A stretch of DNA of 64,000 nt. Origin: an uncultured Chloroflexia bacterium (lineage in GTDB: Bacteria > Chloroflexota > UBA6077 > JACCZL01). Every line of letters starts with the position of its first letter. Positions within the stretch are counted from its first letter, which is position 1. The notes below the pieces were generated by a model. It ran no database searches and was not told where the DNA came from. It saw nothing but the letters and a program-made list of their open reading frames with translations. The stretch spans positions 160,001 through 224,000 of the forward strand of contig CAVXYC010000019.1 in the NCBI GenBank assembly GCA_963765765.1. Direction: 5' to 3'. The position numbers and the translations under genes were made by a program. Below, piece after piece: positions 1,659 to 63,401 of this stretch.

Positions 1659-2102
1659 ATGTCAGCGGATCCGGTGATGTCGGCTTACATTGTCGTCGCG
1701 GATGCGGCGGACGCGATTGAGTTTTATTCGAAGGTCTTCGGAGCGGTGGAGCGTATGCGCCTGGCCGAGCCGAGCGGTCGCATTGGCCACGCGGAGCTTG
1801 TCATTGGCGACAGCGTGCTCATGCTCGCCGATGAGCATCCCGAGCTCGGAGTCGTGGGCCCGCGCGCGATCGGCGGCTCGCCCGTGTCGCTCCATCTCCG
1901 TGTTGACGATGTGGATGCTGTCAGCACGGCCGCCGAACAGGCCGGTGCGACCATCGAGAGGGCCCCGGAGGAGCAGTTCTACGGGTCCCGGAGCGCGACA
2001 CTCATCGATCCATTCGGTCACCGATGGATGATTCAGACGCCTACCGAGGAGGTGTCGGCCGAGGAAGTTCAGCGACGCTATGACGCGATGATGACGACTT
2101 AG
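1659..2102 (+). CDS. VOC/glyoxalase (PhnB-like) protein
   Basis: AIEFYSKVFGA...HAELVIGDSVLMLADE...FYGSRSATLIDPFGHRW; RBS GGAGAG. Confidence 0.92.
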   Translation: MSADPVMSAYIVVADAADAIEFYSKVFGAVERMRLAEPSGRIGHAELVIGDSVLMLADEHPELGVVGPRAIGGSPVSLHLRVDDVDAVSTAAEQAGATIERAPEEQFYGSRSATLIDPFGHRWMIQTPTEEVSAEEVQRRYDAMMTT

Positions 2103-3400
2103 CTGGCCGCCCTCCCTGCGTCGCCGAGTCGACTCCTCCCGGCGTAAGCGTCTCGGCCGGCATTGAGCCGACTGAGGCAGACGACTCCCAGCAGTGCCAC
2201 GAGTCCTGCTTGACCGAATGCGAGCGGCCATCCGAGGTCCGCGCTGAAACTGTCCAGCACGATGCCCGCGACGACCGGAGCGACGACCGAGGCGCTAAAC
2301 GAGATCGAAGTCTGGGCCGCCTGCGTGGCGCCCAGCCTATTGGGCTCGGCAAGCTCGGTGATTGCCGTGGAGTACACCGCCGAGTCCGAGGCTACAAGAA
2401 GCCCGTAAATGAGAACGATTGCGACGAGCACCGGCCATGGCGCTCCTGAAAGCCAGCCGATGCAGAGTGAAGTTAGACCGCTGGTGAGTAGAAAGACGCC
2501 TGCGCCTCGGGCCCGGCCCAGACGGTCCGAGAGCGCACCGCCTGCGAGCACGCCCAACGCGGTGGGCAGCGATACGAGGCCAGACGTCGAAGCCGCTCTC
2601 GCGGTTGCTTCGACGGATTCAACACCTTGTTGAACAAGTGTCCAGGTCAGGTAGGGTGAGATCCAGGCGCGCGTCACGTACAACTCCCAGGTATGCGCGC
2701 TGTAAGCCAGAGTCACCAGCAGAATTCCCGGTGCTTTCAGTACGCTGAAGTCGGGCAGTCCACTTCGACGAGAAGTTGATATCGTGCGAGGACGAGTAAA
2801 CAAGCAGAGCGCGATCACTGGCGCCAGGCATGCGGCGCCGGCGACAGCGAGCATGGCTTCTCGCCATGCAGTGGCGCCGAGCAACACCCCCGTGATTACG
2901 AGCGATAGGCTGGAGCCAAGGTAAAACGCCGCCACGTACATTCCCACGGCGGCACCCCTGCGTTCTGAAAATTGCTCGGCAACGAGTCGTAATCCGGGCA
3001 TGTACACGCCGGCCAGACCCACTCCTGCGAGTGCACGTAGCACGGCCGCCGAGGGTATGTCATGACTCAGGATCGGAAAAAGCAGATTGGCCAGGCCCGC
3101 GGCCAGTGCCGATGCGGCGACAACGACGCGACTGTCCAGTCGATCCGTAAGCGACACCAGGAAGATTGTTGCCAGGACGTAGCCACATTGATGCGCTGAG
3201 AAGACTACGCCGGCTTGTGTACTCGAGATATCCCACTCACCCACGATGATGGGCTGAGCCGCCGAGAAGCTGGACGACGGCAGCAGGACCAGCATTAAGA
3301 CTGTGCTGATCGCGATCAGCCAGGGCAGATTCTTTGCGGGTCTGCGATGACATCGAAAGCGAGGGTACGAGTGGGTGCGCCGTTGATGCAATCGCACCAA
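2099..3400 (-). CDS. MFS transporter
   Basis: About 12 hydrophobic segments, loop motifs SLTDRLDSR and GALSDRLGR; true start may be ATG at 3353 with a frameshift. Confidence 0.88.
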   Translation of the reverse strand: MVRLHQRRTHSYPRFRCHRRPAKNLPWLIAISTVLMLVLLPSSSFSAAQPIIVGEWDISSTQAGVVFSAHQCGYVLATIFLVSLTDRLDSRVVVAASALAAGLANLLFPILSHDIPSAAVLRALAGVGLAGVYMPGLRLVAEQFSERRGAAVGMYVAAFYLGSSLSLVITGVLLGATAWREAMLAVAGAACLAPVIALCLFTRPRTISTSRRSGLPDFSVLKAPGILLVTLAYSAHTWELYVTRAWISPYLTWTLVQQGVESVEATARAASTSGLVSLPTALGVLAGGALSDRLGRARGAGVFLLTSGLTSLCIGWLSGAPWPVLVAIVLIYGLLVASDSAVYSTAITELAEPNRLGATQAAQTSISFSASVVAPVVAGIVLDSFSADLGWPLAFGQAGLVALLGVVCLSRLNAGRDAYAGRSRLGDAGRAAS

Positions 3401-3473
3401 GAACAGGTGCCCGCATCGAAGTCAATCCGTTGACGTATGATTCCAAACGACGAAACACGACGGTCGAAGTGGA

Positions 3474-4524
3474 ATGATGCTGAGATTTCGCCGACTCCTC
3501 GAAGCGCTCCCTCGCGGCGCACTTCTCCTATTAATACTCAGCATTGCCGTGGTCACGGCTTGTGCTCCAGCGACGAACACGCAGAGTGCCGCACAGAAGA
3601 ACGTTCACTTCATGGGCGGGTACAAGCCGCAAGCCAACCTGCCGTTCGTCGCAGCTTATGTGGCCCAGGCTCAAGGCTATTTCGCGGCTCAGAACCTCAA
3701 TGTCCAAATCTCACATTCGGCCGGTCAGGGAGAGCATCTCAAGCTCGTCCTCCAGGGCTCTGTCGACGTCACTACGGGCGCGGCGGACGCAGTGTTGGGG
3801 CGTCGCTCCGAGAATCTGCCAGTCACGGCATTTGCGCTATTCGGACAACGAGGCGACATCGCGTATGCCGTGTTGGAGTCATCGGAGATCCACTCACCGC
3901 GCGATTTCGAGAACCACACCGTTGGCTTCAAGGTCAATCCATCGCCGGAGTACCTGGCGCTACTCAAGACGACCGGCGTGGACCGCTCCAAGATCCAGGA
4001 AGTGCCCGTGGGGTTCGATCCGCGCTTGCTGGCCGCGGGCCGGGTTGACGTCTATCCGGTCTTCGAGTCAAACGAGCCGCATACGTTGCAAACCCTCGGC
4101 GTGCCGACACGATTGATCAAGGCATCCGACTACGGTGTGCCCGGGACTTGGCCTTACGTACATCACGCGACAGTCCCTCATCGATGACGACCCCGACGTA
4201 CTGGAGCGATTTCTCAAGGCCACGCTGCGCGGTGTTGAGTACGCTCGGGCCAATATCGACGCCGCAACAGATATCGTGATGCAGCACGCCCCCAACGAGG
4301 ATCGCGAGCATCAACGCAATATGCTTGAAGTCGAGCTGAACATGGCGGACGGTCCAGTCTCCCGTGCGAATGGGCTGGGCTGGTCAACGCAGGAGCAGTG
4401 GCAGGCGCTGAACAATTCGCTTCTGGAGTTCGGCGGACTGAAGCAATCGGTTGCTGCGGATACGGTGTTCAGTGATCGCATCATTCGGTCGGTCTACAAA
4501 AACGGGCAGCTCGTCTGGCCGTGA
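3474..4524 (+). CDS. ABC transporter substrate-binding lipoprotein, NMT1/THI5 (RibY-like) family; frameshift near 4140
   Basis: Lipobox VTAC, YKPQANLPFVAAYVAQAQGYF; continues in ORF 4135..4524 (GLTYITRQ...LERFLKATLRGVEYA). Confidence 0.85.
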
Positions 4525-5396
4525 CCTCTAGGGCAACTGTCTCCGCGTCTGAAGTGGGAATCGGCTCGGATACGGCGGAGACGCGCACAGAGCTTCCGGG
4601 GACCGGGTCCAGCATTCTGGCTCGTGGTGTCAGGCACGCATACGAGACCCGAAGTGGGACCGTGAGGGCGCTGGACGGCATCGATGTAGCCATTCGTCAC
4701 GGTGAGCTCGTGGCACTTCTGGGACCCAGCGGATGCGGGAAATCCACGTTTCTACGCATTCTCAGTGGATTGCTCGCCCCAACCGAGGGCCAGGTGCTTC
4801 TGGCCGGCGAAGCGCCCGCGTTGGCCAACCGCCGCTACGGGATGGGGTGGCTTGCTCAGGATGACGGTCTGCTTCCCTGGCGAAGTGTTGGCGCAAATGT
4901 CGCTCTGGCGCTGCAGCTTGGCGGACGTAATCCGGCTCGGGCTGACGATGAACAAGTCACTGCCATACTCGATCGTGTGGGATTGGCCGATAGCCTGAAC
5001 CGGTTTCCACACGAGCTGTCCGGGGGAATGCGCCAGCGTGCGGCCCTGGCCAGGGCCATCGTAAGCTCTCCGGCGTTTCTCTTTCTGGATGAACCGTTCG
5101 CCAATCTGGATGAGCTGATCCGCGAGCGGTTAGGTGAGCTGCTCATCGATGTTCGAAGGGCGACTCGGCCGACTACATTGCTGGTGACCCACTCTGTCAC
5201 GGAAGCCGTGCGCCTTGCGGACCGGGTGGTGGTGTTCTCACCCCGTCCCGGGCGCATCGTCTCCGAGATGGCAATCACCCTGAGTCAACCGCGCTCCTAC
5301 GATCAGCCGGGTTTTGGCGCCACCGCGGAACAGCTCAAACGAGCACTTCGAGATACCGACTCGTCGGTACAGGTGACGTCTGGCCAGGTGAAATGA
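4521..5396 (+). CDS. ABC transporter ATP-binding protein (NitT/TauT type)
   Basis: Walker A GPSGCGKS, signature LSGGMRQR, Walker B FLDEPF; GTGA overlap with upstream gene. Confidence 0.95.
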   Translation: MTSRATVSASEVGIGSDTAETRTELPGTGSSILARGVRHAYETRSGTVRALDGIDVAIRHGELVALLGPSGCGKSTFLRILSGLLAPTEGQVLLAGEAPALANRRYGMGWLAQDDGLLPWRSVGANVALALQLGGRNPARADDEQVTAILDRVGLADSLNRFPHELSGGMRQRAALARAIVSSPAFLFLDEPFANLDELIRERLGELLIDVRRATRPTTLLVTHSVTEAVRLADRVVVFSPRPGRIVSEMAITLSQPRSYDQPGFGATAEQLKRALRDTDSSVQVTSGQVK

Positions 5397-6160
5397 CGGC
5401 GAGCGGGATTCGTCAGTCAATTCCCACGATCGCGTTTTTAGTAGCGATCTTCGGTGCGTGGGAGGTCGTAACCTCGGTACTTCGGGTACCGAGTTATCTT
5501 CTCCCCGGCCCATCGCTCGTTCTTGGTCGCTGGATCTCCGACTTCCGCTTCTTCCTGTTCGAGGGTGGAATCACGCTCCTGGAAGCGCTTGCGGGACTGT
5601 TGCTTGGAGGGGGCGTTGCGCTTCTGGCAGCTTTGCTGATGGCGCGCTGGCCTTGGGTCGAGCGGGCCGTACTCCCGATCGCTATCGTGGCAAAGGTCAC
5701 GCCGGTCGTCATCGTGGCGCCGCTCTTTGCTCTGTGGTTCGGATTCGGACCGTTACCGCGCGTCTTGATCGCGGCCCTACTGACGTTTTTCCCCATCCTC
5801 ATTGGCGCTGTCTCCGGGCTTCGGGCCGCGCCTAGAGCAGCGCGCGATGTGTTTGCCACGTTGAATGCCACCCCCTTTGAAGACGCTTTCATGCTCCGTC
5901 TTCCCTACGCATTGCCTCAGCTCTTCGCCGCGATCAAGGTCTCCAGCACGCTTGCCTTGCTGGGCGCCGCGATTGCGGAGTGGGTAAGTGGTGACCGAGG
6001 CCTTGGTCGTGCGGTGCTCCTTGCCAACAGCAATCTGGATACACCAGGCGCGCTCGCCGGCGTGGCCACGATCGGCCTCTTCGGCATTGCTATGATCGGA
6101 CTGATCACCCTGCTCGAGCGGCGAGTTCTCTTCTGGGCGGGGGACGAGGTAGCCCGGTGA
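5393..6160 (+). CDS. ABC transporter permease (NitT/TauT, RibX-like)
   Basis: YLLPGPS...TPVVIVAPLFALWFGFG...LPYALPQLFAAIK...AEW..GLG; ATGA overlap. Confidence 0.93.
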   Translation: MTASGIRQSIPTIAFLVAIFGAWEVVTSVLRVPSYLLPGPSLVLGRWISDFRFFLFEGGITLLEALAGLLLGGGVALLAALLMARWPWVERAVLPIAIVAKVTPVVIVAPLFALWFGFGPLPRVLIAALLTFFPILIGAVSGLRAAPRAARDVFATLNATPFEDAFMLRLPYALPQLFAAIKVSSTLALLGAAIAEWVSGDRGLGRAVLLANSNLDTPGALAGVATIGLFGIAMIGLITLLERRVLFWAGDEVAR

Positions 6161-7083
6161 TCGTTGCACTGGCGGGCGGCGTCGGCGCTGCCCGCTTCCT
6201 GGAAGGGCTGGTTCGCGTTGCTCCACCCGAGACGGTAACCGTCATCGTGAACACTGGTGATGACGCCGAGTTCTATGGGCTTCATGTGTCGCCGGACGTC
6301 GATATTGTGGTCTACACCCTGGCCGGAATTGTGAATCCGGAGCACGGCTGGGGGATTAAGGGAGACTCGTTCAATGCGCTGGAGATGCTGGCGCGTCTGG
6401 GGCGCGAGACATGGTTCCAGCTTGGCGATCGCGATCTTGCCACGCTGATTCATCGCACCGACCTGCTACGTCGCGGCCTCAGTCTGTCAGAAGCGACCGC
6501 CCAGATCGCGACGGCGCTCGGTGTCCGCTCGCGCATCCTCCCAATGTCGGACCAACTGGTGCGGACCATGGTGCGGACCACTGCCGGCTGGCTCGCGTTT
6601 CAAGACTATTTCGTGAAGCTTCGGACGGAGCCCGATGTGGTGGAGATCGCCTATTCTGGCGCAGACATTTCCCAGCCGGCTCCGGGTGTCCTTGAAGCGA
6701 TCCACACGGCTGAAGCAATCGTTCTCTGCCCGAGCAATCCCCTGGTTAGTATCGGGACGACTCTGGCAGTCCCGGGAATTCGCGAAGCCCTTGGTGCCTC
6801 GAGCGCGCCCGTTGTTGCCATCAGTCCGATCGTCGGCGGCGGCACGATCAAGGGGCCGGCGGATCGCATGATGCGCGGACTGGGTATGGAAGTCTCGCCC
6901 GTGGGAGTCGCCCGGGCCTACCAGGACTTTCTCGACGTACTCGTTCTCGATGTGCAGGATGCTCACTACGCTCCTGAGATCGAGCGGTTGGGAATTCGGA
7001 CGCTTGTAACGGACACCATCATGCGGACCCTGGAGATCAAGGAGCAGTTGGCCAGTGAGACGCTTGCTACAGTGCTCGCATGA
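6157..7083 (+). CDS. cofD: 2-phospho-L-lactate transferase (F420 biosynthesis)
   Basis: ALAGGVGAARFLEGL, VNTGDD, VSPDVD, WFQLGDRDLAT, FQDYFV, PSNPLVSIG, KGPADRMM; GTGA overlap. Confidence 0.95.
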   Translation: MIVALAGGVGAARFLEGLVRVAPPETVTVIVNTGDDAEFYGLHVSPDVDIVVYTLAGIVNPEHGWGIKGDSFNALEMLARLGRETWFQLGDRDLATLIHRTDLLRRGLSLSEATAQIATALGVRSRILPMSDQLVRTMVRTTAGWLAFQDYFVKLRTEPDVVEIAYSGADISQPAPGVLEAIHTAEAIVLCPSNPLVSIGTTLAVPGIREALGASSAPVVAISPIVGGGTIKGPADRMMRGLGMEVSPVGVARAYQDFLDVLVLDVQDAHYAPEIERLGIRTLVTDTIMRTLEIKEQLASETLATVLA

Positions 7084-7727
7084 GTGGAATTTGGGCGCTC
7101 CTCCCCGTCAAGTCCCTCCAGCACGGTAAGTCGAGGCCTCTCGCCACGCCTTTCACTCGTGGAGCGGCAGGAGCTCTCCCTGGCGATGCTGCGAGACGTG
7201 CTAACCGCCGTAACGCAAGCCCCGAGCATCGTGGGCGGGCTTGTCATCCACTCCGATCCGATCATCGAGAGCCTGGCGACGGAGATGCTCGTGGAGGTCG
7301 AGTCGAGTCGCCCGAGGCAGGCGACCTCAATGGCGCGCTTCGTCAGGGCCTCGGGATCATCTCGAGCATGGGCGCCGACGGAGCGCTCATCATTCCGGGC
7401 GACGTGCCGCTCGTAGACGCCGCTGCCATCGAGCAGATCGTTTGGCTCTCGCCGGCATCACCCGGAATCACGATCTGCCCATCGCTGGACGAAGACGGAA
7501 CGAACGGCCTCTTGCTTTGCCCGGTGCAGGCAATCGGTCCGAAGTTTGGTCATCAGAGCTTTCACCGACACACCGAGCTGGCTCAATTCGCGGGTGTGCC
7601 GGTGGCGGTAAGCCGGATCGCATCTCTTGGGCTGGATATCGATGAGCCGAGAGATCTCGACGCCTTCCTTGCGGTGGACACTTTTACGCATGCAGGCGCG
7701 GTCTTGCGCGGTCTGGTCTCGCGTTAG
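7080..7727 (+). CDS. cofC: 2-phospho-L-lactate/PEP guanylyltransferase (F420 biosynthesis); compensating frameshifts about 7135-7310
   Basis: LLPVKSLQHGKSR, alternative-frame LSPRLSLVERQELSLAMLRDVL, DLNGAL, PGDVPLV, GTNGL, FGHQSFHRH, GLDIDEPRDL; ATGA overlap with cofD. Confidence 0.9.
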   Translation: MSGIWALLPVKSLQHGKSRPLATPFTRGAAGALPGDAARRANRRNASPEHRGRACHPLRSDHREPGDGDARGGRVESPEAGDLNGALRQGLGIISSMGADGALIIPGDVPLVDAAAIEQIVWLSPASPGITICPSLDEDGTNGLLLCPVQAIGPKFGHQSFHRHTELAQFAGVPVAVSRIASLGLDIDEPRDLDAFLAVDTFTHAGAVLRGLVSR

Positions 7728-7973
7728 AGCTTCCTTGAATCGCCACGGGCTGGTGGAACAGAATAAGCGTCCGTTCGGGTTGAAGGAAGCTCGAGGCGAC
7801 ACGCGCGTCGCGGGTTACCGATTAGGGCTCAGCGGCTGTGGGCACATCGCGTAGGCCCTCCACGGTCGTCGGTCATACGATCGTTCAATCGCCCTTGCAG
7901 CCCTGCGCAATGACCAGTTGGATTCGAAAGATTTCGTGCTCTATGCCATTTGCGTCACAGTGGCGGATCGGAC

Positions 7974-9543
7974 ATGATGACGGTGAGTGGCGAAATGCGG
8001 CGAAGCGAACTGATCTTTCTGGTACCGCTTGTGGTACTGACCGTTGCTCTGCGCCTGGTCGTCCTGGAGAGCTCAGAGTGGATGACCGAGGGGGATGAGG
8101 CCCTGACAGGCCTGATGGCCCTTCACATTCTGCACGGAGACAGGCCTGTATACCTCAACGGCCAGGCTTACATGGGTGCGTATCAAGCGTATGTCGCGGC
8201 GGGGCTCTTCGCGATTCTGGGAGTCTCGACGATTGCGCTCAAGATTGTCCCGTTGATCGGATCAGTCGCGTTCGTTCTCAGCATCTACATGCTTGCTCGA
8301 CGACTCATTTCTCCGTGGGGTGCATGCGCAGCGGGGTTGATCGCGGCGGTCCCCCCCGTGTACATCCTGGCCAACATGTCCAAGGCCTGGGCGCCACACG
8401 CCGAAGTCATGGCTCTCGGCAATGTGCTGATCCTGCTCGCCATTCGCCAGCACACCCGCGATGCCCGTGGTGCGGAGCCAGTACTGTTTGGAGCGTTGGC
8501 AGGCTTTGCCTTCTGGCTCCACCCTTTCGTTGCTTACTATCTCGTCGTTTGCGGATGCATCCTGGTGCTCGGCCAGCCGATCCGGACACTGACCCGCTTG
8601 CCTCTTCTATTGGCCGGAATTGTGGTGGGCACGATGCCGGTCTGGATGGCCAACGTCGCCTACGCCTCGGACACTTTCCGTTTCCTGACGGTGCCGACGG
8701 GCTCTCACCAGGATATAGGGGCGATCGCCTCGTACCTTGTGTATTCTGGACTGCCTCGAGCGATGGGCTGGTGGCAGCCCTGGGGCGTCCTTCCTCAGCC
8801 GGCCGCCTGGATGCTGATAGGTACCACGGGCCTCGGCCTGCTCGTACTGTTTGTGCGGGGCCGGGCAGACTCACGGCTTCAGGATCGCTCCGACCGATGC
8901 GCCGATCCTGCTGGCGATCAGTGTGCCGGCCATGTTTGTCATGAGCGGCTTCGGTGGGCCCAGCCAGAACCCCTGGGGATTCGACGCTACCGGCCGCTAT
9001 CTAATGCCTCTGTGGGGTGTGGTGCCATTGGCAGTGGCGGCATTTGCTCAATTCCTCCTGAAATCACATTGGCTTGCGGTGAGCGCGGTGACCCTGGTAG
9101 TAGGCGCCCAGGCCCTCGGTTATGCCACGGCGGATCCCTTGCAGATTTTTCAATCACCGTACTGGAATAGACTCCCAGCACAGAGCACAGCCCTCGAGAA
9201 CTATCTGCTGGAGCACGGGGTGACCCGCGTCTGGATGAACCACTGGGCCGGATTTCCGCTCATGTTGCGGACGGGAGAGCGGGTGATCGCCACGGACTAC
9301 TATGACGTCGTAAAAGGGGGCGGGATCAGCCGATTCCCCGAGCATTTCGATGCCATGGAGCATGCCGAGCAAACCGCGTATATTCTCGTGACCACGGAGT
9401 ACAGTCCTCCGTTGCTCGGAGAGCTTCACGAATTAGGTGTGGACTATCGCGCTGAAAGGTTCGATCAGTACCTGGTAGTCCAGCCTCTATCCAGGCGCGT
9501 TGAGCCCTGGGAAGTGGCAGATTCCATTGGCTACAAGTATTGA
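7974..9543 (+). CDS. GT-C fold membrane glycosyltransferase (GT39/ArnT-like); frameshift near 8870
   Basis: EGDEALTGLMALHIL..GQAYMG after first TM helix, many TM segments; continues in ORF 8851..9543. Confidence 0.8.
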
Positions 9544-57324: not shown

Positions 57325-57499
57325 ATGTGACCGGAGCCACAGTCTCTAAAGCCCTGCCCCTTAGAACGACAGCCCCGGTGATCGGGAGCCCCCGCCGCGG
57401 CATAAACACCCCAGCGCGAAAAAATTCCCCGGTCTCCACAGGCCGACTGTTATGCTCAACTCTAATCGCGATCCCTCAACAGAAGGCAGCAACAGATAT

Positions 57500-57916
57500 A
57501 TGGCCGCACAAGCCGCCTACCACATCCAGCCCAACGCTCCCAACCTGCTCATCCGGACTCTCTGGTTCGTCTTAATCGGCTGGTGGCTCGGCGGAGTTCT
57601 CACCGCCATCGCCTGGTTTCTCTTCGTCACCATTATCGGTCTGCCGCTGGGCCTGTACATCGTCAATCGATTGCCCACCGCCATGACCCTCCGCCCTCAA
57701 GAACAGCAGTTCCGAGTGGAGAATGGCATCGCGGTCCAGGGCCAGGAGCAGTTGCCGTTTCTGTTGCGTGCCCTCTACTTCTTCCTGATCGGCTGGTGGC
57801 TCACGGGCGTATGGATGGCCGCCGCCTATGCCTGCCTGACCACCATCATCCTTCTCCCGGTCAGCTTCTGGATGTACAACCGCATCGGCGCGGTGACGAC
57901 GCTGTACCGGTCATAG
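57500..57916 (+). CDS. yccF: YccF domain inner membrane protein (copy 1)
   Basis: Two internal repeats IRTLWFVLIGWWL..TIIGLPLG and LRALYFFLIGWWL..TIILLP. Confidence 0.85.
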   Translation: MAAQAAYHIQPNAPNLLIRTLWFVLIGWWLGGVLTAIAWFLFVTIIGLPLGLYIVNRLPTAMTLRPQEQQFRVENGIAVQGQEQLPFLLRALYFFLIGWWLTGVWMAAAYACLTTIILLPVSFWMYNRIGAVTTLYRS

Positions 57917-58016: not shown

Positions 58017-58445
58017 CTATTCAGACGGAAAGCGTCGCCTAAATTCCTGCGCCAGCGTTTCGCCGGCTGCCTCTACGAGCTTGCCTACTATTGGGTTGAC
58101 GATCACTCCCGTTACGGCTCCCGCGAGCGCGGGGACATTCTTGGCAAACCAGTTCCGCACGTACTCCATTGTGGTGAGGTCGGGCTTCTCCTCCGCCACG
58201 GCCTGCTGTAGCTCGTTCACTCGCTCCAGCGCCGCCCCCTGGAGCTCCGGTGGAGCCTCGACAGCGATCCGAGCACGGACGCCCTCGATGGCGCCGAGCA
58301 GCTCGTTCAACTCACTCTCGGTGACGCCGCTTGACGTCACCGTGGTCTGACTTTGACTGATGCCCTTGCCGATCGCTACCTGGCCACTGATGTCTCCGGT
58401 CACGGTTCCGTGGATGACATCGCCTTCTCGAGATTGTTCGCTCAT
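58017..58445 (-). CDS. Small protein with N-terminal amyloid-like motif and C-terminal helical domain; putative effector partner of the upstream NLR
   Basis: 142 aa, RBS AGGAGG, starts 16 bp after the NLR stop; motif GDISGQVAIGKGISQSQT shared with NLR N-terminus. Confidence 0.8.
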   Translation of the reverse strand: MSEQSREGDVIHGTVTGDISGQVAIGKGISQSQTTVTSSGVTESELNELLGAIEGVRARIAVEAPPELQGAALERVNELQQAVAEEKPDLTTMEYVRNWFAKNVPALAGAVTGVIVNPIVGKLVEAAGETLAQEFRRRFPSE

Positions 58446-58461: not shown

Positions 58462-60863
58462 CTAGTTGATGATGACTCGACCGGGGGTTGGAGTGCGTGT
58501 CGGCGTCGGCTGAAGTACGCGTGTTGGTGTCGGCGTCGTCTGAGGTACGCGTGTTGGTGTTGGCGTCATCGTCCGCGTTGGTGTCGCCGTCGCCGCGGCG
58601 GGAAGCTCCACCTGGAGCGCCGCCGAGGTGTTGTTGGACTCGTCTCCTTCCTGCACGCGGCAGGTCGGCGGCTGAAACTCCTCGCCGGCACAGCTATCCG
58701 CGGTGATCTGGAGCGCAACCGATTGACCCGCCAGCGAGAGCGGCAGTACGATGGTGCCGGCAAACGAGACGGCGCTGCCGGCTGCCAGGGGGCCATCGGT
58801 GAACGGGTAGCTGGGGGAGCGCTGTCCGGGAACCACAAACGGCGCCTCGAAGGTATCGCGGCCGACGCTTCCGATCCGCCCGGTGAAGCTGGCTGAGAGC
58901 TTGAAGATTGGAGCGGGCTGTCCCCCCTGATTTCGAACATCGACACGAACCGGCACGAGGAGACGTTCATCCTGCTGCGTAAATCCGGGCGCCGCGCCAG
59001 ATGTAGGCCTGCCCGTGAGCTCGAATCGCTGGGCGATCACGTCAGGCGCCGCAACGCTGCTCGGCGAGACCGTCGGGCCCGCTCCGTCCCGCGTCGGTGA
59101 GGCCGTGGGCGTGCGTGGGGCTACGGCCGTAGTAGGTGTAGGGGTGGTGAGGCCGACCACAACGGCTACGGGCGTGCTGGAGGCGACGAGCGCCACGGCG
59201 CTGGGCGTTGTGGGCGGGGTTGGAGTGGGCACTATCGGATCAACGGGCGCGTCCGAAACGCCAGAGCGCCAGCGCCCCCACTCCGACGATGGCGGCCAGC
59301 CCGAGCAGCAGTTTGCTGGTGGTCCAATGCGCTTGCTGGCCGTTGGTCGGCGCCTGCGCTGGCGGGACGTCCAGTGCCAGCGTAAGGTTGTGGCGCGTGG
59401 CGGCCGCGCCGGCATCGTCACCCAGAGCCTCGCGCAGTCGAAGCGCGCTATCGAGGCTTGACTGCGCGGTGCCAACATCGTTCAGACAGAGCGCACGGGT
59501 GCCAAGCTGGTGCAGCGCCCAGGCTTCGGCCGCCTGATCGCCCACGGCGCGCGCCGACTCAAGCTGCCACCCCAGCACGCGGCTCCAGGCCCCCCAGGAG
59601 CCGGACAGCGCAAATGCTGCCTCGGCGTGGCGCGCAAGATCGAGCGTTTCGCTCGGCATATTCGCACCGGCGCCCCATTCCAGCATGCGCAGGATCGCAT
59701 CGCCGTTCGCCTGGATGTCAGATGGGGTGCGCGTCTCGTCTCTGGCCCAGCCGGTGATCTGGCTGAGTGTCTCCTGGGGCTGCGTGCTCGACGCAAGCAC
59801 GGCCGTCTCATACTCGGAGAAGCTGCCGGCCTGGCGATAGCCTCCCGCGTCCGCCTCCACCAGCCCGCGAGCGACAAGGGAGTCCAGCGCGGCCTGGGGT
59901 TCCAGGCCGGTCAACGGGCCCAGCATGTCTGCCGTGAGACGTATCCCCGCGGGAGCGGACAGCGCGCTCAGGACGCGGCGCTCGTCGGGCGGCAGCGCGG
60001 CCATTGCCAGCCCCGCCGGTGTCGTCGCGGAGCCGGCCGCCTGCATGCGCTGGAGCATCGCGGCCGCGGTGGTTTGCTCATCGCGCATCATCGCGGCCGC
60101 CTGCAGGATGCGCAGCGGGTGGCCGTCAAGCGCCAGGCACAGATCCCGCGCTGACGGGAGCTCATCGTCGCGCAGCTCGCGTCCCAGGCCGCGCTCCAGC
60201 AAGCGTAGTGCCGCGTCGATCGGCAGCCCATGAATGGGAATGGAACGACCTTCCCCCAGGAGCCTCGGGGCGGTGCCGGACAGGACTATCGAGCACGCTG
60301 GCGCCGCGTCCAGGAGCGCGTTCACGTCATCGTGCTCCAGCTCGCAATCGTCGATGACTAGTAGGAAGCGCTTTTCCTGGAGGGCCGAGCCGGAGCTCCG
60401 CAGCGCTCGGCTTGTACGGATTCGGAGACTCGTAGAACCCGTCGAACACCGTCTGGAGAAGATCGTCCACCGATCGCCCGGCCACCAGCGCCTGGCCCAG
60501 GCAGATGACGCCGTCCGAGTACGCGGGCAGCCCGGTCGCGTTTGCCAGGTGGCGCAGCAGGGCGCTCTTCCCGATCCCGGCCTCGCCAGTGAGCTCCACG
60601 GGCGCCAGCTCGCCCAGGCCCTCCAGAGCGCCCGCGAGCTCCGCCTCTCGATCCAGCAGGTCGCGGAACGGTCGGAACCGGAACGGCACCGGCGTGACGC
60701 GTGGCTTGGGTCGAGGCGCCTCAGCCGCCGGCCCCAGGTTCACCACGCCACCATGATTGGTGAGCTGCAGCGTCTGGACCTGGAAGATGTCTTTCCCGAC
60801 CGCGATCTGCCCGCTAACATCGCCGCGGATAACGGCATCGATCGTGTCAGATGTTCCTGACAT
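58462..60863 (-). CDS. Membrane-anchored NLR/STAND ATPase: amyloid-like motif, NB-ARC-like ATPase, TPR, TM, Pro/Thr stalk, CARDB (Ig-like) domain; frameshifts near 60389 and 59257
   Basis: LLDREAEL, Walker A GEAGIGKS, Walker B RFLLVIDDCE, DGHPLRI, TPR EAWALHQLGTRAL..ALRLREALGD..TRHNL, TM LLLGLAAIVGVGALALW, CARDB PDVI..VRNQG..ADS..VQEGDESNN. 2402 nt minus two inserted bases gives 799 aa. Confidence 0.8.
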
Positions 60864-61157: not shown

Positions 61158-61575
61158 ATGTCCGATCAGCCCTCCGTACGATATTCAACCCAGTGCCCCC
61201 AACATCATCATCCGCATCCTATGGTTCGTTCTCATTGGATGGTGGCTCGGGGCCATCGTCTCGGCGATCGCCTGGTTCCTGAACATCACGATCATCGGGC
61301 TCCCGCCGGGCCTCTATCTGATAAACCGACTCCCCACCATCATCACACTCCGCCCGCAAGAGCAGAACATCCGAGTGGAGCACGGTGTGGTCAAGCACGG
61401 CCAGGACCAGCAACCGTTCATGTTGCGCGCGCTCTACTTTGCGCTCGTCGGCTGGTGGCTCTCCGGCCTCTGGCTGGTCGCCGCCTACGCCGCCCTGATG
61501 ACCGTCATTTTGATCCCCGCCAGCTTCTGGATGTACAACCGCATCGGCGCGGTGACGACGCTCTATCGGTCGTAG
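61158..61575 (+). CDS. yccF: YccF domain inner membrane protein (copy 2); N-terminal frameshift
   Basis: IQPSAPNIIIRILWFVLIGWWLG..LINRLPT..TLRPQEQ..SFWMYNRIGAVTTLYRS, collinear with copy 1. Confidence 0.83.
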
Positions 61576-61624: not shown

Positions 61625-62810
61625 TCAGCTCACGTGAGCCGCTTGACCCTGGAGGAACTTCCAGCATCAGGCGGCTGACGGCCTCGGGCTGTTCCTGCTG
61701 GACCCAGTGCCCGGCTCCTTCCAGCAGGTGGATGCCCCGCAGATCGGTGCAGATCTGTGTCGCGCATCGCCTCCAGACGCCCGGCCCGCTGGTAGACGCC
61801 CCAGTCGCTCGTACCGCTGATGAACAACGAGGGCACGTCGATGGTGCGGTCGGAGTACACCCGCAGCTCAGCCGAATAGGCGGGGTCCGTTTGCAGGCGG
61901 TACGAATTGAGACCGCCCTGGAAGCCCGTGCGCGTGTACTCATCCGAGCACACGCGCAGCTCCTCCTCCGTGAGCCACTGATTCGCCGCGATCTCCTCGG
62001 GCGTGGGCATGTCCAGGGCCACGTTCTCCGGCATCGTCTTGTCGAGGTCCATGACGTAGTAGCGCGGCATCTTGGCGAGCTCGGTTGCGCTGAACGCCGT
62101 CAGCGGGTGCGGCGCGTTTCCCTTCCAGTCGGCGCTCTTCACGTGGTAGTAGGCGCGCAGGAAATCGTGGATGCCCTGCTTCGCACCCATCCACTCGTCG
62201 TTCGCTTCGCGTCGCGCGTTGTACCAGTGGTAGTGCTTGCGCGGTTGGGGCAGCGCCGCCAGGTCGTCGTGGACGCTCGGGCCCGCCGGGGCTGGGGCTT
62301 CGGCGGCTCGTTCGCGGTGTTGAACGGGAACGCTGGCGCGCCCTCGAACGGCGCCGTCATCAGCACCATCGAGCGAAACACGTCCGGTCGGATCAGCGTG
62401 GACCAGCCCGTGACTCCCGCGCCGAAGTCATGCCCCACAATCATCGCCACGTTGCGATACCCGAGCGCGTAGACCAGCCCGAGGGTATCGCGCACGCGCT
62501 CCATGGGCCGCCACGGCCAGAGGCTATCGTCAAAGGTGACGTCGGTGCCGCCCGAGCGACCGTAGCCGCGATGATCCGGTGCCACCACGTGGTAGCCGGC
62601 CTCGGCCAGCGGCAGCATCACCTTGCGCCAGCTATACGCCAGCTCCGGATAGCCGTGCATCAGGAGCACCAGTGGCCGCCCGGGCTCCTCGAAGCCGGCC
62701 TCCAGGATGTGCATGGTGATGCCGTTGTTGTTGTCCACGAAGCGGGAGCGAATCCCGACGGGGATGGTGGTCTGGCCGTAGGCGACGTCGCGGTTGATGG
62801 TTCCTGACAT
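61625..62810 (-). CDS. Alpha/beta hydrolase (epoxide hydrolase-like); several frameshifts
   Basis: HGYPELAYSWR, APDHRGYG, nucleophile GHDFG, GFQGGLNSYR, GAGHWVQQEQPE. Confidence 0.9.
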
Positions 62811-63401
62811 GGTCCCCTCGTCGCGCGTAGAGCGTCCTGAAGATGCGCTCCCGATTATGGTGGCTACAGGTGTCTCCTGCACCGTGAGTGCGACGTACCG
62901 CCGCTCATTCGGTCCGACGATATCGAGCCGGCAACTCGTAGAGCGGGCATCCCTGCCCGCTGCGGCCGTCTCTCCCAATCTGCCCAGGCCAACGGTCTCG
63001 CGCCATCAACCAACACTGGGAGCGCCGCCGTTTCGGCGGCCCGGCCGTGGAGGCCGCGCTCTCAAAGACTCCTCATGACAGTTGCGGCTTCCGTGAAGGT
63101 GCGGCCTCGACGGCCGGGCCCGCCGGGGACAGCGGCGGTCCCAGTCTCAAGCAGGCGCACCCTCGGTCGCATTGCTATGCTCGATCATCGGTTCCTAGAG
63201 CAAATCGGATCTAGCACTCAGTCCGCCTACGTCCTTGAGCCGCGCGCCAAGATAGCCGCCACTTACGCCGGCCTCATGACCGTCGACCACATTCCAGTTG
63301 GCTTCAGTGCGATCGTCGCAAGACAAAGGCTGGCCCGTCGAATGAGTACAATCGCCACGGTCTTCTTAACTTATTGGCATTGAAACCGTCTGATTACATC
63401 C

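Follow-up and report, generated by a model that had tools for sequence, protein, structure and literature searches.

A predicted single-pass STAND protein with an exchanged ectodomain, and its motif-sharing partner, in an uncultured Chloroflexia bacterium

The window examined in this study is a stretch of 64,000 nucleotides from contig CAVXYC010000019.1 (assembly GCA_963765765.1) of an uncultured Chloroflexia bacterium. Between positions 58462 and 60863, on the minus strand, three overlapping open reading frames (ORFs) hold the parts of a protein resembling NOD-like receptors (NLRs), with a nucleotide-binding ATPase of the STAND class, a hydrophobic helix and an immunoglobulin (Ig)-like domain. 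The locus raises the question of whether these are three genes or one and, if one, what an NLR with a folded domain beyond a membrane helix might sense. C-terminal repeats act as the sensor in characterised STAND proteins, and in plants, animals and fungi the characterised NLRs, to our knowledge, detect their triggers intracellularly. Characterised bacterial STAND/NLR immune receptors also sense inside the cell, and the family described here would show an NLR switch wired to extracellular recognition through a single transmembrane (TM) helix. A receptor of this kind had been proposed in a first-pass annotation of the sequence. Our analysis points to one NLR gene, followed by a gene for a small partner that shares its N-terminal motif; the gene architecture and this two-gene cassette, taken together, are highly probable.

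Reading frames and the two frame breaks

Frame A (60863-60327, minus strand, 178 aa) opens with MSGTSDTIDAVIRGDVSGQIAVGKDIFQVQTLQLTNHGGVVNL and holds the N-terminal motif and the Walker A sequence GEAGIGKS. Frame B, open from 60739 to 59243 on the same strand, holds the Walker B sequence FLLVIDD, the helical part with its tetratricopeptide repeats (TPRs) and the hydrophobic helix; it is meaningful from about LQEKRFLLVIDD (Walker B) onward, and the real gene piece is 60388-59243. After the helix, LLLGLAAIVGVGALALW, this frame reads RFGRAR and then meets a TGA at 59242-59240. On the same strand, frame C (open between 59481 and 58465) contains a Pro/Thr stalk, a domain of approximately 160 residues with DSCAGEEFQPPTC and a TPTPTR tail, and is meaningful from about PVDPIVPTPTPP (real gene piece 59247-58465). 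Both frame shifts are +1. The first-pass annotation had predicted that dropping one base near 60389 and one near 59257 would give an ORF of 799 aa. Single-base deletions were combined over three positions at the first junction (60387-60392) and four at the second (59246-59257), and an ORF of this length, the only property compared, was obtained in 12 of 12 combinations. The elements listed in that annotation (NB-ARC part, TPRs, TM helix, stalk, Cys-pair domain and TPTPTR tail) were all found on the minus strand at the places given for them (Table 1).

A homolog search with the real part of frame B returned 110 proteins at E<=1e-3, including the window's own 361-aa gene call, and these homologs are mostly 650-870 aa long. 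Two proteins encoded on metagenome contigs, P0004 (804 aa) and P0005 (784 aa), are the closest; both are uninterrupted and colinear with pieces A, B and C. Their identity to the window is 74 and 78% over piece A, 74 and 67% over piece B, and 62 and 55% over the Ig-like domain, respectively. The first junction reads ELRLALQDKRFLL in P0004 and ELRLALGSKRFLL in P0005, and at the second junction ...GALALW runs directly into the Pro-rich stalk in both. Because the three pieces tile the two orthologs colinearly over both junctions, and the repaired ORF has 799 aa, the interval reads as one gene of about 799 codons and not as three, in keeping with the single gene proposed at first pass.

The alternative, that the locus encodes three proteins (a small one with a P-loop, one with the TPRs and TM helix that stops at the TGA, and an independently translated, secreted CARDB-like one), agrees with the automatic gene calling, which gave a separate 361-aa protein (P0003) for the middle piece, and with the occurrence elsewhere of standalone forms of the Ig-like domain. 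It would, however, split the Walker A and Walker B motifs of one ATPase between two proteins, and it would leave the third piece without a signal peptide or a plausible start; the latter had been noted at first pass for the CARDB-like part, and frame C upstream of the stalk is indeed out-of-frame TPR sequence. As the orthologs are single proteins of 784-804 aa, and most of the 109 homologs extend 120-350 residues past the TM helix, three separate genes are extremely improbable.

A search of sequencing runs found none with the source sample. The best runs contained 0.25-0.28 of the sampled words, and their contigs, which represent relatives, overlap both frame breaks. In contigs of three soil-metagenome runs from two studies (X1, X2 and X3; 98-99% identity over the aligned pieces), one base was absent at 60387, at 4.25/4.25, 3/3 and 6/6 of the depth, respectively. 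One base was also absent at 59249 in X1 (4.3/4.3 of the depth) and at 59252 in X2 (3.41/3.41), with a local identity of 92-94%. Essential genes of the same assembly are interrupted in a similar way: in rpoB the homology passes through three frames (G000:C20:326017-329370), and valS has one frame change, between profile positions 191 and 193 (G000:C17:111917-114497), with rpoC, gyrA and secA intact. This corresponds to approximately four frame changes in approximately 15 kb of essential genes, a frequency compatible with the two changes in the NLR gene of 2.4 kb. Since both extra bases are missing from near-identical contigs, and frames are also broken in rpoB and valS, the two breaks most likely arose as assembly errors. 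Programmed frameshifting was rejected as an explanation, because the orthologs are uninterrupted at both sites and the essential genes are broken likewise.

The frameshifts might instead be real, the window copy being a decaying pseudogene, perhaps inactivated since the cassette is costly. Both breaks occur in the one assembly of this organism examined, and no homopolymer of more than three bases is found at either, a point against the assembly-error explanation. Because the runs that supplied the contigs cover at most 0.28 of the sampled words and thus represent relatives, a pseudogene specific to this strain may still be involved. In addition, the cassette lies in a GC-rich island (0.70, versus 0.60 in the flanks and 0.61 genome-wide) and is absent from 40 of the 40 relatives searched, as would be expected of dispensable acquired genes. 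The pieces themselves, however, show no in-frame stops, deletions or excess substitutions and retain 55-78% identity to the orthologs over their full length, and the partner gene is intact. With breaks of the same type in two essential genes of the assembly, and both extra bases missing in contigs of near-identical strains, decay of the gene is improbable, and the conclusions on the family hold whether the breaks are artefact or real.

The apparent three-gene locus is read as one gene, and as even rpoB and valS carry frame errors, other split genes of this assembly need to be treated with care and not taken for pseudogenes without reads. A frame change is apparently present in a second class-I tRNA-synthetase-like gene too (C10:292454-295004). 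In the window, two overlapping ORFs on the minus strand in different frames (61630-62190 and 62139-62978) are possibly one frame-split hydrolase gene; the upstream ORF matches positions 1-116 of the 245 of an alpha/beta-hydrolase profile only, and the downstream ORF has no Pfam match. In a Chloroflexia metagenome-assembled genome (locus L087), an NLR homolog is split into two overlapping ORFs (5974-6579 and 6518-8458), maybe by a similar assembly error, and is followed by the small partner at 8528-8962.

Table 1. Features of the NLR-like gene and its partner gene (window positions)
Feature	Position	Strand	Description
Whole NLR-like gene	58462..60863	-	Predicted 799-aa ORF once one base is dropped at each of two junctions
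N-terminal motif	60711..60842	-	Residues 8-51, DTIDAVIRGDVSGQIAVGKDIFQVQTLQLTNHGGVVNL...; rich in G, V, I, Q
Walker A P-loop GEAGIGKS	60564..60587	-	Read directly; fits GxxGxGK[ST]
First +1 frame break	60385..60392	-	Between ...AAELR and LQEKRFLL; ortholog alignment
Walker B FLLVIDD	60347..60367	-	FLLVIDDCE; frame B
Short TPR-like block	59384..59650	-	AEAWALHQLGTRALCLND...TRHNL; most conserved part of the family
Predicted single TM helix	59261..59311	-	LLLGLAAIVGVGALALW; hydrophobic segment, frame B
Second +1 frame break	59243..59260	-	Directly past the TM helix; TGA 59242-59240 out of the true frame; ortholog alignment
Pro/Thr/Ser/Ala-rich stalk	59080..59247	-	Frame C; ortholog alignment
Predicted exported Ig-like (CARDB-like) beta-sandwich	58591..59079	-	Cys pair ADSCxGEEF..PxCRV, E..NN end; DSCAGEEFQPPTC
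TPTPTR-type low-complexity C-terminal tail	58465..58590	-	Stop codon 58464-58462
Partner gene	58017..58445	-	142 aa; starts 16 nt past the NLR stop, behind AGGAGG
Partner's copy of the motif	58353..58415	-	VIHGTVTGDISGQVAIGKGISQSQT; residues 11-31; motif HMM E 1.2e-5
Partner C-terminal module	58029..58184	-	PDLTTMEYV..WF..N.P.LAGAVTGV.V.PIVGKLVEAAG....EFRRRF; hydrophobic Gly/Ala-rich helices

Cytoplasmic part, membrane helix and ectodomain

The protein is most probably of a single-pass STAND/NB-ARC type, consisting of the N-terminal motif of approximately 40 residues, a P-loop ATPase with a helical/winged-helix part, TPRs, the TM helix, the stalk and a beta-sandwich. A hidden Markov model (HMM) of the motif, built from 26 N-termini of the family, matches the NLR ORF at E 1e-14. 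In an alignment of 11 members (A2), the Walker A motif is invariant at G96, G98 and K99, the Walker B motif at D171 and D172, and a GxP motif at G247, P249 and L250; every invariant column lies before, or at the start of, the stalk. The GxP motif reads LDGHPLRILQAAA in frame B, with GHPLRILQAAA in the helical region, and we take it to be the GLPL-type motif of the helical ARC1 subdomain. Pfam matches at the P-loop of the split window pieces were sub-threshold (AAA_16, AAA_22 and NACHT), and P0004 matched AAA_22 and AAA_16 only. NB-ARC (PF00931) was matched in 28 of 62 homologs at E<=1e-3, with a best value of 7.9e-10. A profile search of the PDB with the family returned TPR proteins and 8zvk, the latter at the low-complexity stalk region, and no solved NB-ARC.

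The TPR block consists of only about two to three units. TPR_12 was matched at E 0.09 in the window and in 22 of the 62 homologs, and the PDB profile matches of the block were the TPRs of LGN/Pins. The nearly invariant columns of an alignment of 109 members cluster in this block.

A hydrophobic 19-mer was found 30-160 residues after the TPR anchor in 70 of 79 homologs; five of the others end too early and four lack it. Among the anchored ORFs of the fetched loci, 47 of 51 have a hydrophobic segment after the TPRs. Past the helix the proteins continue for a median of 200 residues, and Pro, Thr and Ser make up a fraction of 0.39 of the first 60 residues past it (69 homologs). Cysteine numbers beyond the helix are mostly even (even 59, odd 5 and none 1 in 65 homologs), in comparison with 36, 28 and 1 for the cytoplasmic part. 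The ORFs of the fetched loci gave a similar result, with even, odd and no cysteines in 36, 3 and 7 past the helix versus 21, 24 and 1 in the cytoplasmic part. Such even counts are taken as a signature of disulfide pairs.

The ectodomain of the window has 434 representative relatives at E<=1e-3 (alignment A4). Among 148 of these whose N-termini were listed, many are lipoprotein-like or signal-peptide-like, as judged by eye. They include proteins of 160-200 aa with a lipobox-like Cys just before the domain, and others in which the domain is the C-terminus of a large protein with a signal peptide. Thirteen of the 148 carry a Walker A P-loop, and 12 of these 13 also begin with the family's N-terminal motif, that is, they are NLRs of the family. 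The ectodomain thus marks out a sizeable family of predicted lipoproteins of 160-200 aa (P0247, P0266, P0273, P0288, P0292 and others) with the pattern PDLVV...NQG...FKV...ADSCxGDEFMPxYCRV.ESNE.NN.

The orientation predicted for the protein is N-in/C-out, which would make it a single-pass STAND with the Ig-like domain outside. The half with the ATPase depends on ATP and lacks a signal peptide, and there is a single helix; together with the even cysteine counts and the exported-looking relatives of the domain, this argues for a C-terminal part outside the membrane. The positive-inside bias around the helix, in contrast, is weak: the mean number of Lys and Arg is 1.97 before the helix versus 1.32 after it (69 homologs), and is higher before the helix in 32 homologs, higher after it in 25 and equal in 12.

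An AlphaFold2 model of the ectodomain gave a beta-sandwich with a mean predicted local distance difference test (pLDDT) score of 92.3. The best PDB matches by Foldseek were Ig/fibronectin type III (FnIII)-like sandwiches, including the FnIII-like domains of GH3 proteins and the lipoprotein YcdA (4r4g), and the domain resembles the CARDB structure 3idu_B (PF1109) at E 7.2e-4, with a TM-score of 0.68 by target length. Pfam CARDB (PF07705) was not matched by frame C, nor was any Pfam family at E<=0.1, and NCBIfam gave no family for the ectodomain alone. The CARDB-like domain of the first-pass annotation is therefore retained for its modelled fold, the likeness being at the fold level only and not one of family membership.

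Pfam analysis of 62 members showed different domains beyond the helix: CARDB, HYDIN-type Ig and Cep192_D4 in five members each, ASH and TMEM131-like in four each, Flg_new_2 in three, DUF11 in two, and PASTA, HYR and CBM96 in one each. Tandem paralogs presented the same picture. At locus L018, two NLRs (1821-4751 and 4988-7441) share 80% identity over the stretch between the motif and the end of the TM helix, after which there is no detectable similarity. At locus L024, two NLRs (3280-5754 and 5980-8260) are 91% identical over residues 1-494; past residue 494 the sequence is replaced for about 170-200 residues, and the last 95 residues are again 86% identical. Intact homologs thus keep the motif, ATPase, TPRs and TM helix while the ectodomain is swapped, which is the pattern that the first-pass annotation had suggested looking for. 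At L018 the tandem NLRs are followed by a single caspase with the shared motif (7462-8559), a layout resembling a receptor repertoire.

The partner gene and the shared motif

Within the whole 6.49-Mb genome, the motif HMM found the motif in the NLR and its partner and nowhere else. Twelve of 24 aligned residues are shared between the two copies. Over 34 copies from the family, the composition of the motif is G 18%, V 16%, I 12%, Q 11%, K 1.6%, P 0.5% and L 2.5%. Bacterial amyloid signalling sequence (BASS) motifs are described as being about 25 residues long, with an excess of G, N, Q, V and I and a shortage of K, P and L (Dyrka 2020, 10.1101/2020.01.06.895854, as far as its text is available). 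The motif of the window family fits this composition as described there and, as likened by composition and gene layout, resembles the amyloid-signalling type.

In about 26 of 80 loci a motif-bearing neighbour was found. About 19 of these neighbours are small proteins of approximately 143 aa, mostly just downstream of the NLR, and seven are caspase (Peptidase_C14)/CHAT proteins, with the motif near the C-terminus, often doubled, and then a zinc ribbon. For the small partners, the likeness between cognate motifs was slightly higher than between non-cognate ones (0.51 vs 0.47, permutation p 0.003, n=11). The zinc ribbon adjoins the motif in one subfamily. It stands before the motif in the NLRs P0011, P0013, P0014 and P0017 and after it in the caspases L018:7462-8559, L025:2805-3896 and L030:9495-10733, and the adaptor may consist of the motif plus the zinc ribbon.

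Homologs of the small partner are numerous (511 at E<=1e-3), nearly all of 141-145 aa and all unnamed, and several are apparently on the same contigs as NLR homologs. The C-terminal half is conserved to an extreme degree, its consensus being PDLTTMEYVKxWFVKNLPxLAGAVTGVVVHPIVGKLVEAAGDALAxEFRRRFG, and an alignment of 36 sequences (A3) has 24 invariant columns. In the AlphaFold2 model of the partner the motif is disordered and the remainder forms a six-helix bundle (pLDDT about 85-93). The hydrophobicity of the helices is borderline (about 1.7 on the Kyte-Doolittle scale), and the Gly/Ala-rich helices are buried in the bundle. Complex prediction for NLR residues 1-60 with the partner gave no answer on binding (score 0.02).

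When 36 partner homologs were compared with Pfam at E<=1, the commonest weak match was DUF4404, in 23 of the 36, all below the cut-off. A search of the ESM Atlas had given TCAD2 (PF19971) as a lead for the partner (score 0.91), which was not confirmed by Pfam on the 36 homologs: neither TCAD2 nor EACC1 was among the 25 commonest of the 49 families that these matched, and neither matches the partner of the window. The 142-aa partner, which the first-pass annotation had left aside, likely supplies the output of the system. It belongs to no known family, has over 500 conserved homologs and is a candidate for a new cell-death effector.

Proposed signalling, known systems and genomic setting

From the architecture, the variability of the ectodomain and the strong conservation of the short TPR block, we infer that the ectodomain is the sensor, and the NLR and its partner may couple recognition outside the cell to a response inside. 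In the proposed mechanism, the variable ectodomain would be the specificity determinant and would bind a ligand beyond the cytoplasm, which could be a phage particle, a wall fragment or the surface of a neighbour. Clustering or a conformational change driven by the ligand would be passed through the single helix to the short conserved TPR block and the nucleotide-binding oligomerisation domain (NOD), and the cytoplasmic NOD would oligomerise with ATP. The N-terminal motifs gathered in this way would recruit or template the motif of the partner, as in amyloid-signalling NLR/effector pairs. Once released, the helical domain of the partner would serve as an effector of cell death or growth arrest, with the membrane as its most likely target, and at the sister loci a caspase/CHAT protease with the same motif would replace the small partner. 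The explanation as a whole (gene, architecture, cassette and outside-in mechanism) is moderately probable, and the outside-in mechanism has somewhat less than an even chance of being correct.

Several results weigh against this explanation. By these HMMs, 54 of the 80 loci have no motif-bearing neighbour, although at least nine of these 54 end at the NLR. The caspase partners show no cognate excess in motif likeness (0.417 vs 0.419, n=6). The motif of the small partner is N-terminal (residues 11-31), and C-terminal in the Bell/BASS pairs as described in the available literature. No solved-fold relative was found for the partner (the best Foldseek match to the PDB had an E of 1.0, and the best structural alignment a Z of 7.7, at the level of helical bundles); no Pfam match to it was obtained at E<=0.1, and none of the families in Pfam, NCBIfam or PADLOC scores above its cut-off. 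Membrane activity of the partner is a guess from borderline hydrophobicity and analogy. A defence role is undocumented, as PADLOC-DB 2.0 gave 0 families for P0004, P0005 and the partner of the window. Weak PADLOC matches were obtained elsewhere in the family, for P0006 (mad8, E 0.002) and the L023 partner (PDC-M14B, E 0.0014), and a caspase partner matches the 'caspase' model.

The ectodomain could equally be an anchor, a device that localises the protein to the wall, septum or sheath, with the signal perceived in the cytoplasm or membrane by the TPRs and the NOD. The TPR block is present, and in the available text of Kaur 2020 (PMC7159879) the C-terminal repeats are the sensor of characterised STANDs. 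The PASTA, CBM96, CARDB and DUF11 ectodomains are wall- or surface-associated by their Pfam names, and intra-membrane as well as periplasmic signals have been suggested for TM-bearing NACHTs in the portion available of Kibby 2022 (10.1101/2022.07.19.500537). The TPR block, however, has about two to three units only and is the most conserved segment of the family, the opposite of what a specificity determinant would be, and the ectodomain is what differs among recent tandem paralogs with a common effector, as expected of a receptor repertoire. An anchoring role is judged unlikely on these grounds, and sensing by the ectodomain is the reading followed below.

A more far-reaching form of ectodomain sensing is a 'receptor-NLR', in which a surface pattern receptor and an intracellular NLR are joined in one polypeptide, with a prion-like motif relay onto a latent membrane-disrupting helical protein or a caspase. 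This idea is tentative, and somewhat doubtful. If it were true, death or arrest could occur before, or without, a component of the invader entering the cytoplasm; the triggers could be, for example, a phage adsorbing to the cell, damage to its wall or, in a filament or mat, a neighbour that is not kin; and tandem paralogs with different ectodomains and one effector would constitute a surface-recognition repertoire. The family would extend amyloid-type signalling to membrane receptors. It also raises the mechanistic question of how one helix gates a NOD, for which the swapped ectodomains offer a natural repertoire.

Gram-positive PASTA Ser/Thr kinases are single-pass outside-in receptors with a cytoplasmic enzyme, one TM helix and extracellular beta-rich domains that bind ligands. 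The NLR family would share this layout, and one of its members has a PASTA ectodomain; unlike in the kinases, the predicted output is a STAND ATPase with an adaptor motif.

The closest parallel in gene layout is with the BASS NLR/effector pairs, in which the N-terminal motif of an NB-ARC/TPR protein recurs in the protein encoded by the neighbouring collinear gene (Dyrka 2020, in the available text). Further likenesses to the pairs described there are the largely filamentous taxa (Cyanobacteria, Actinomycetota and Chloroflexota) and the CHAT/caspase effectors with a C-terminal motif, which also occur in the present family. In contrast to these pairs, the NLR described here is predicted to cross the membrane and to have an ectodomain (the word 'transmembrane' occurs 0 times in the preprint text of Dyrka 2020), and its commonest partner is the 142-aa helical protein, for which no solved relative was found and which, unlike the described Bell (HeLo-like) effectors, has the motif at its N-terminus. 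The E. coli antiphage pair Bab/Agp, as far as it is described in the available text of Ibarlosa 2024 (10.1101/2024.11.07.622273), has the same logic and differs in that the receptor here spans the membrane and in the partner. Membrane action of the partner, as proposed above, would parallel that of the Bell/HeLo-type effectors (Ibarlosa 2024) and of EACC1 (Evans 2025, 10.1101/2025.11.14.688446), going by the accessible portions of both.

Avs and bNACHT proteins, in the available text of Kibby 2022 and Evans 2025, share with the family the STAND core, a sensor region at the C-terminus and a death effector that is N-terminal or encoded next to the ATPase (sensor and effector being predicted ones here), and their genes are similar in forming an acquired cassette of the defence-island type. 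The characterised ones are cytoplasmic and recognise phage proteins through long repeats or other cytoplasmic domains, whereas here the variable part is predicted to lie outside the membrane. The first-pass statement that characterised STAND receptors are cytoplasmic is thus fair, with the reservation that a transmembrane STAND/NACHT class is listed in both preprints; in Evans 2025 'transmembrane STAND ATPases' are among the sensors fused to Pepco-linked proteases. As in that class, a STAND ATPase is joined to membrane-spanning sequence and may sense beyond the cytoplasm; the present family differs in having one TM helix after the NB-ARC/TPR part, an exchangeable folded Ig-like ectodomain and a motif-sharing partner. 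No description was found in the literature searched of a family with NB-ARC, TPRs, a single TM helix, an Ig ectodomain and a motif-sharing partner, and figures or supplements of Kaur 2020, Kibby 2022 and Evans 2025 may show such architectures. Transmembrane STANDs are mentioned only in passing in the papers searched, and it is the architecture of the family with its motif-sharing partner that was not found described in the texts available.

The EACC1-caspase systems (Kaur 2020; Evans 2025, as far as described in the accessible text), which are membrane systems of two genes, are similar in that caspase-type proteases and STAND sensors are paired with a small non-enzymatic protein whose conserved helix consists largely of small residues. 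The present cassette differs from them in that its partner would be coupled through the shared motif and not through a fused protease, and has no Pfam match at E<=0.1. The caspases of the sister loci resemble the NCBIfam family 'caspase, EACC1-associated type' (96 bits, with a cut-off of 140). Pfam presumably holds a model of EACC1, and the lack of Pfam matches of the partner is taken to include this family.

The NLR family comprises over 100 protein clusters. The 80 loci, drawn from species genomes, are distributed over nine phyla-level groups: 27 in Chloroflexota, 22 in Cyanobacteria, 12 in Actinomycetota, 10 in Acidobacteriota, four in Eremiobacterota, two in Armatimonadota and one each in Dadabacteria, Betaproteobacteria and Gemmatimonadota. 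In the genomes of 40 relatives of the Chloroflexia bacterium no ortholog was found, with weak TPR matches only, in seven of them. The cassette has a GC content of 0.68-0.71, compared with about 0.60 in the flanks and 0.61 genome-wide. Because of its high GC content, its position between two yccF paralogs and its absence from the 40 relatives, the cassette looks acquired, as an island or by a duplication around the insertion.

The yccF paralogs flank the cassette in the same orientation (57452-57916 and about 61177-61575, both on the plus strand). Their proteins are 72% identical over 132 residues and their DNA 75% over 407 bases. From the ORF list the second copy had given the impression of being frame-broken, which was rejected, as it aligns in one frame.

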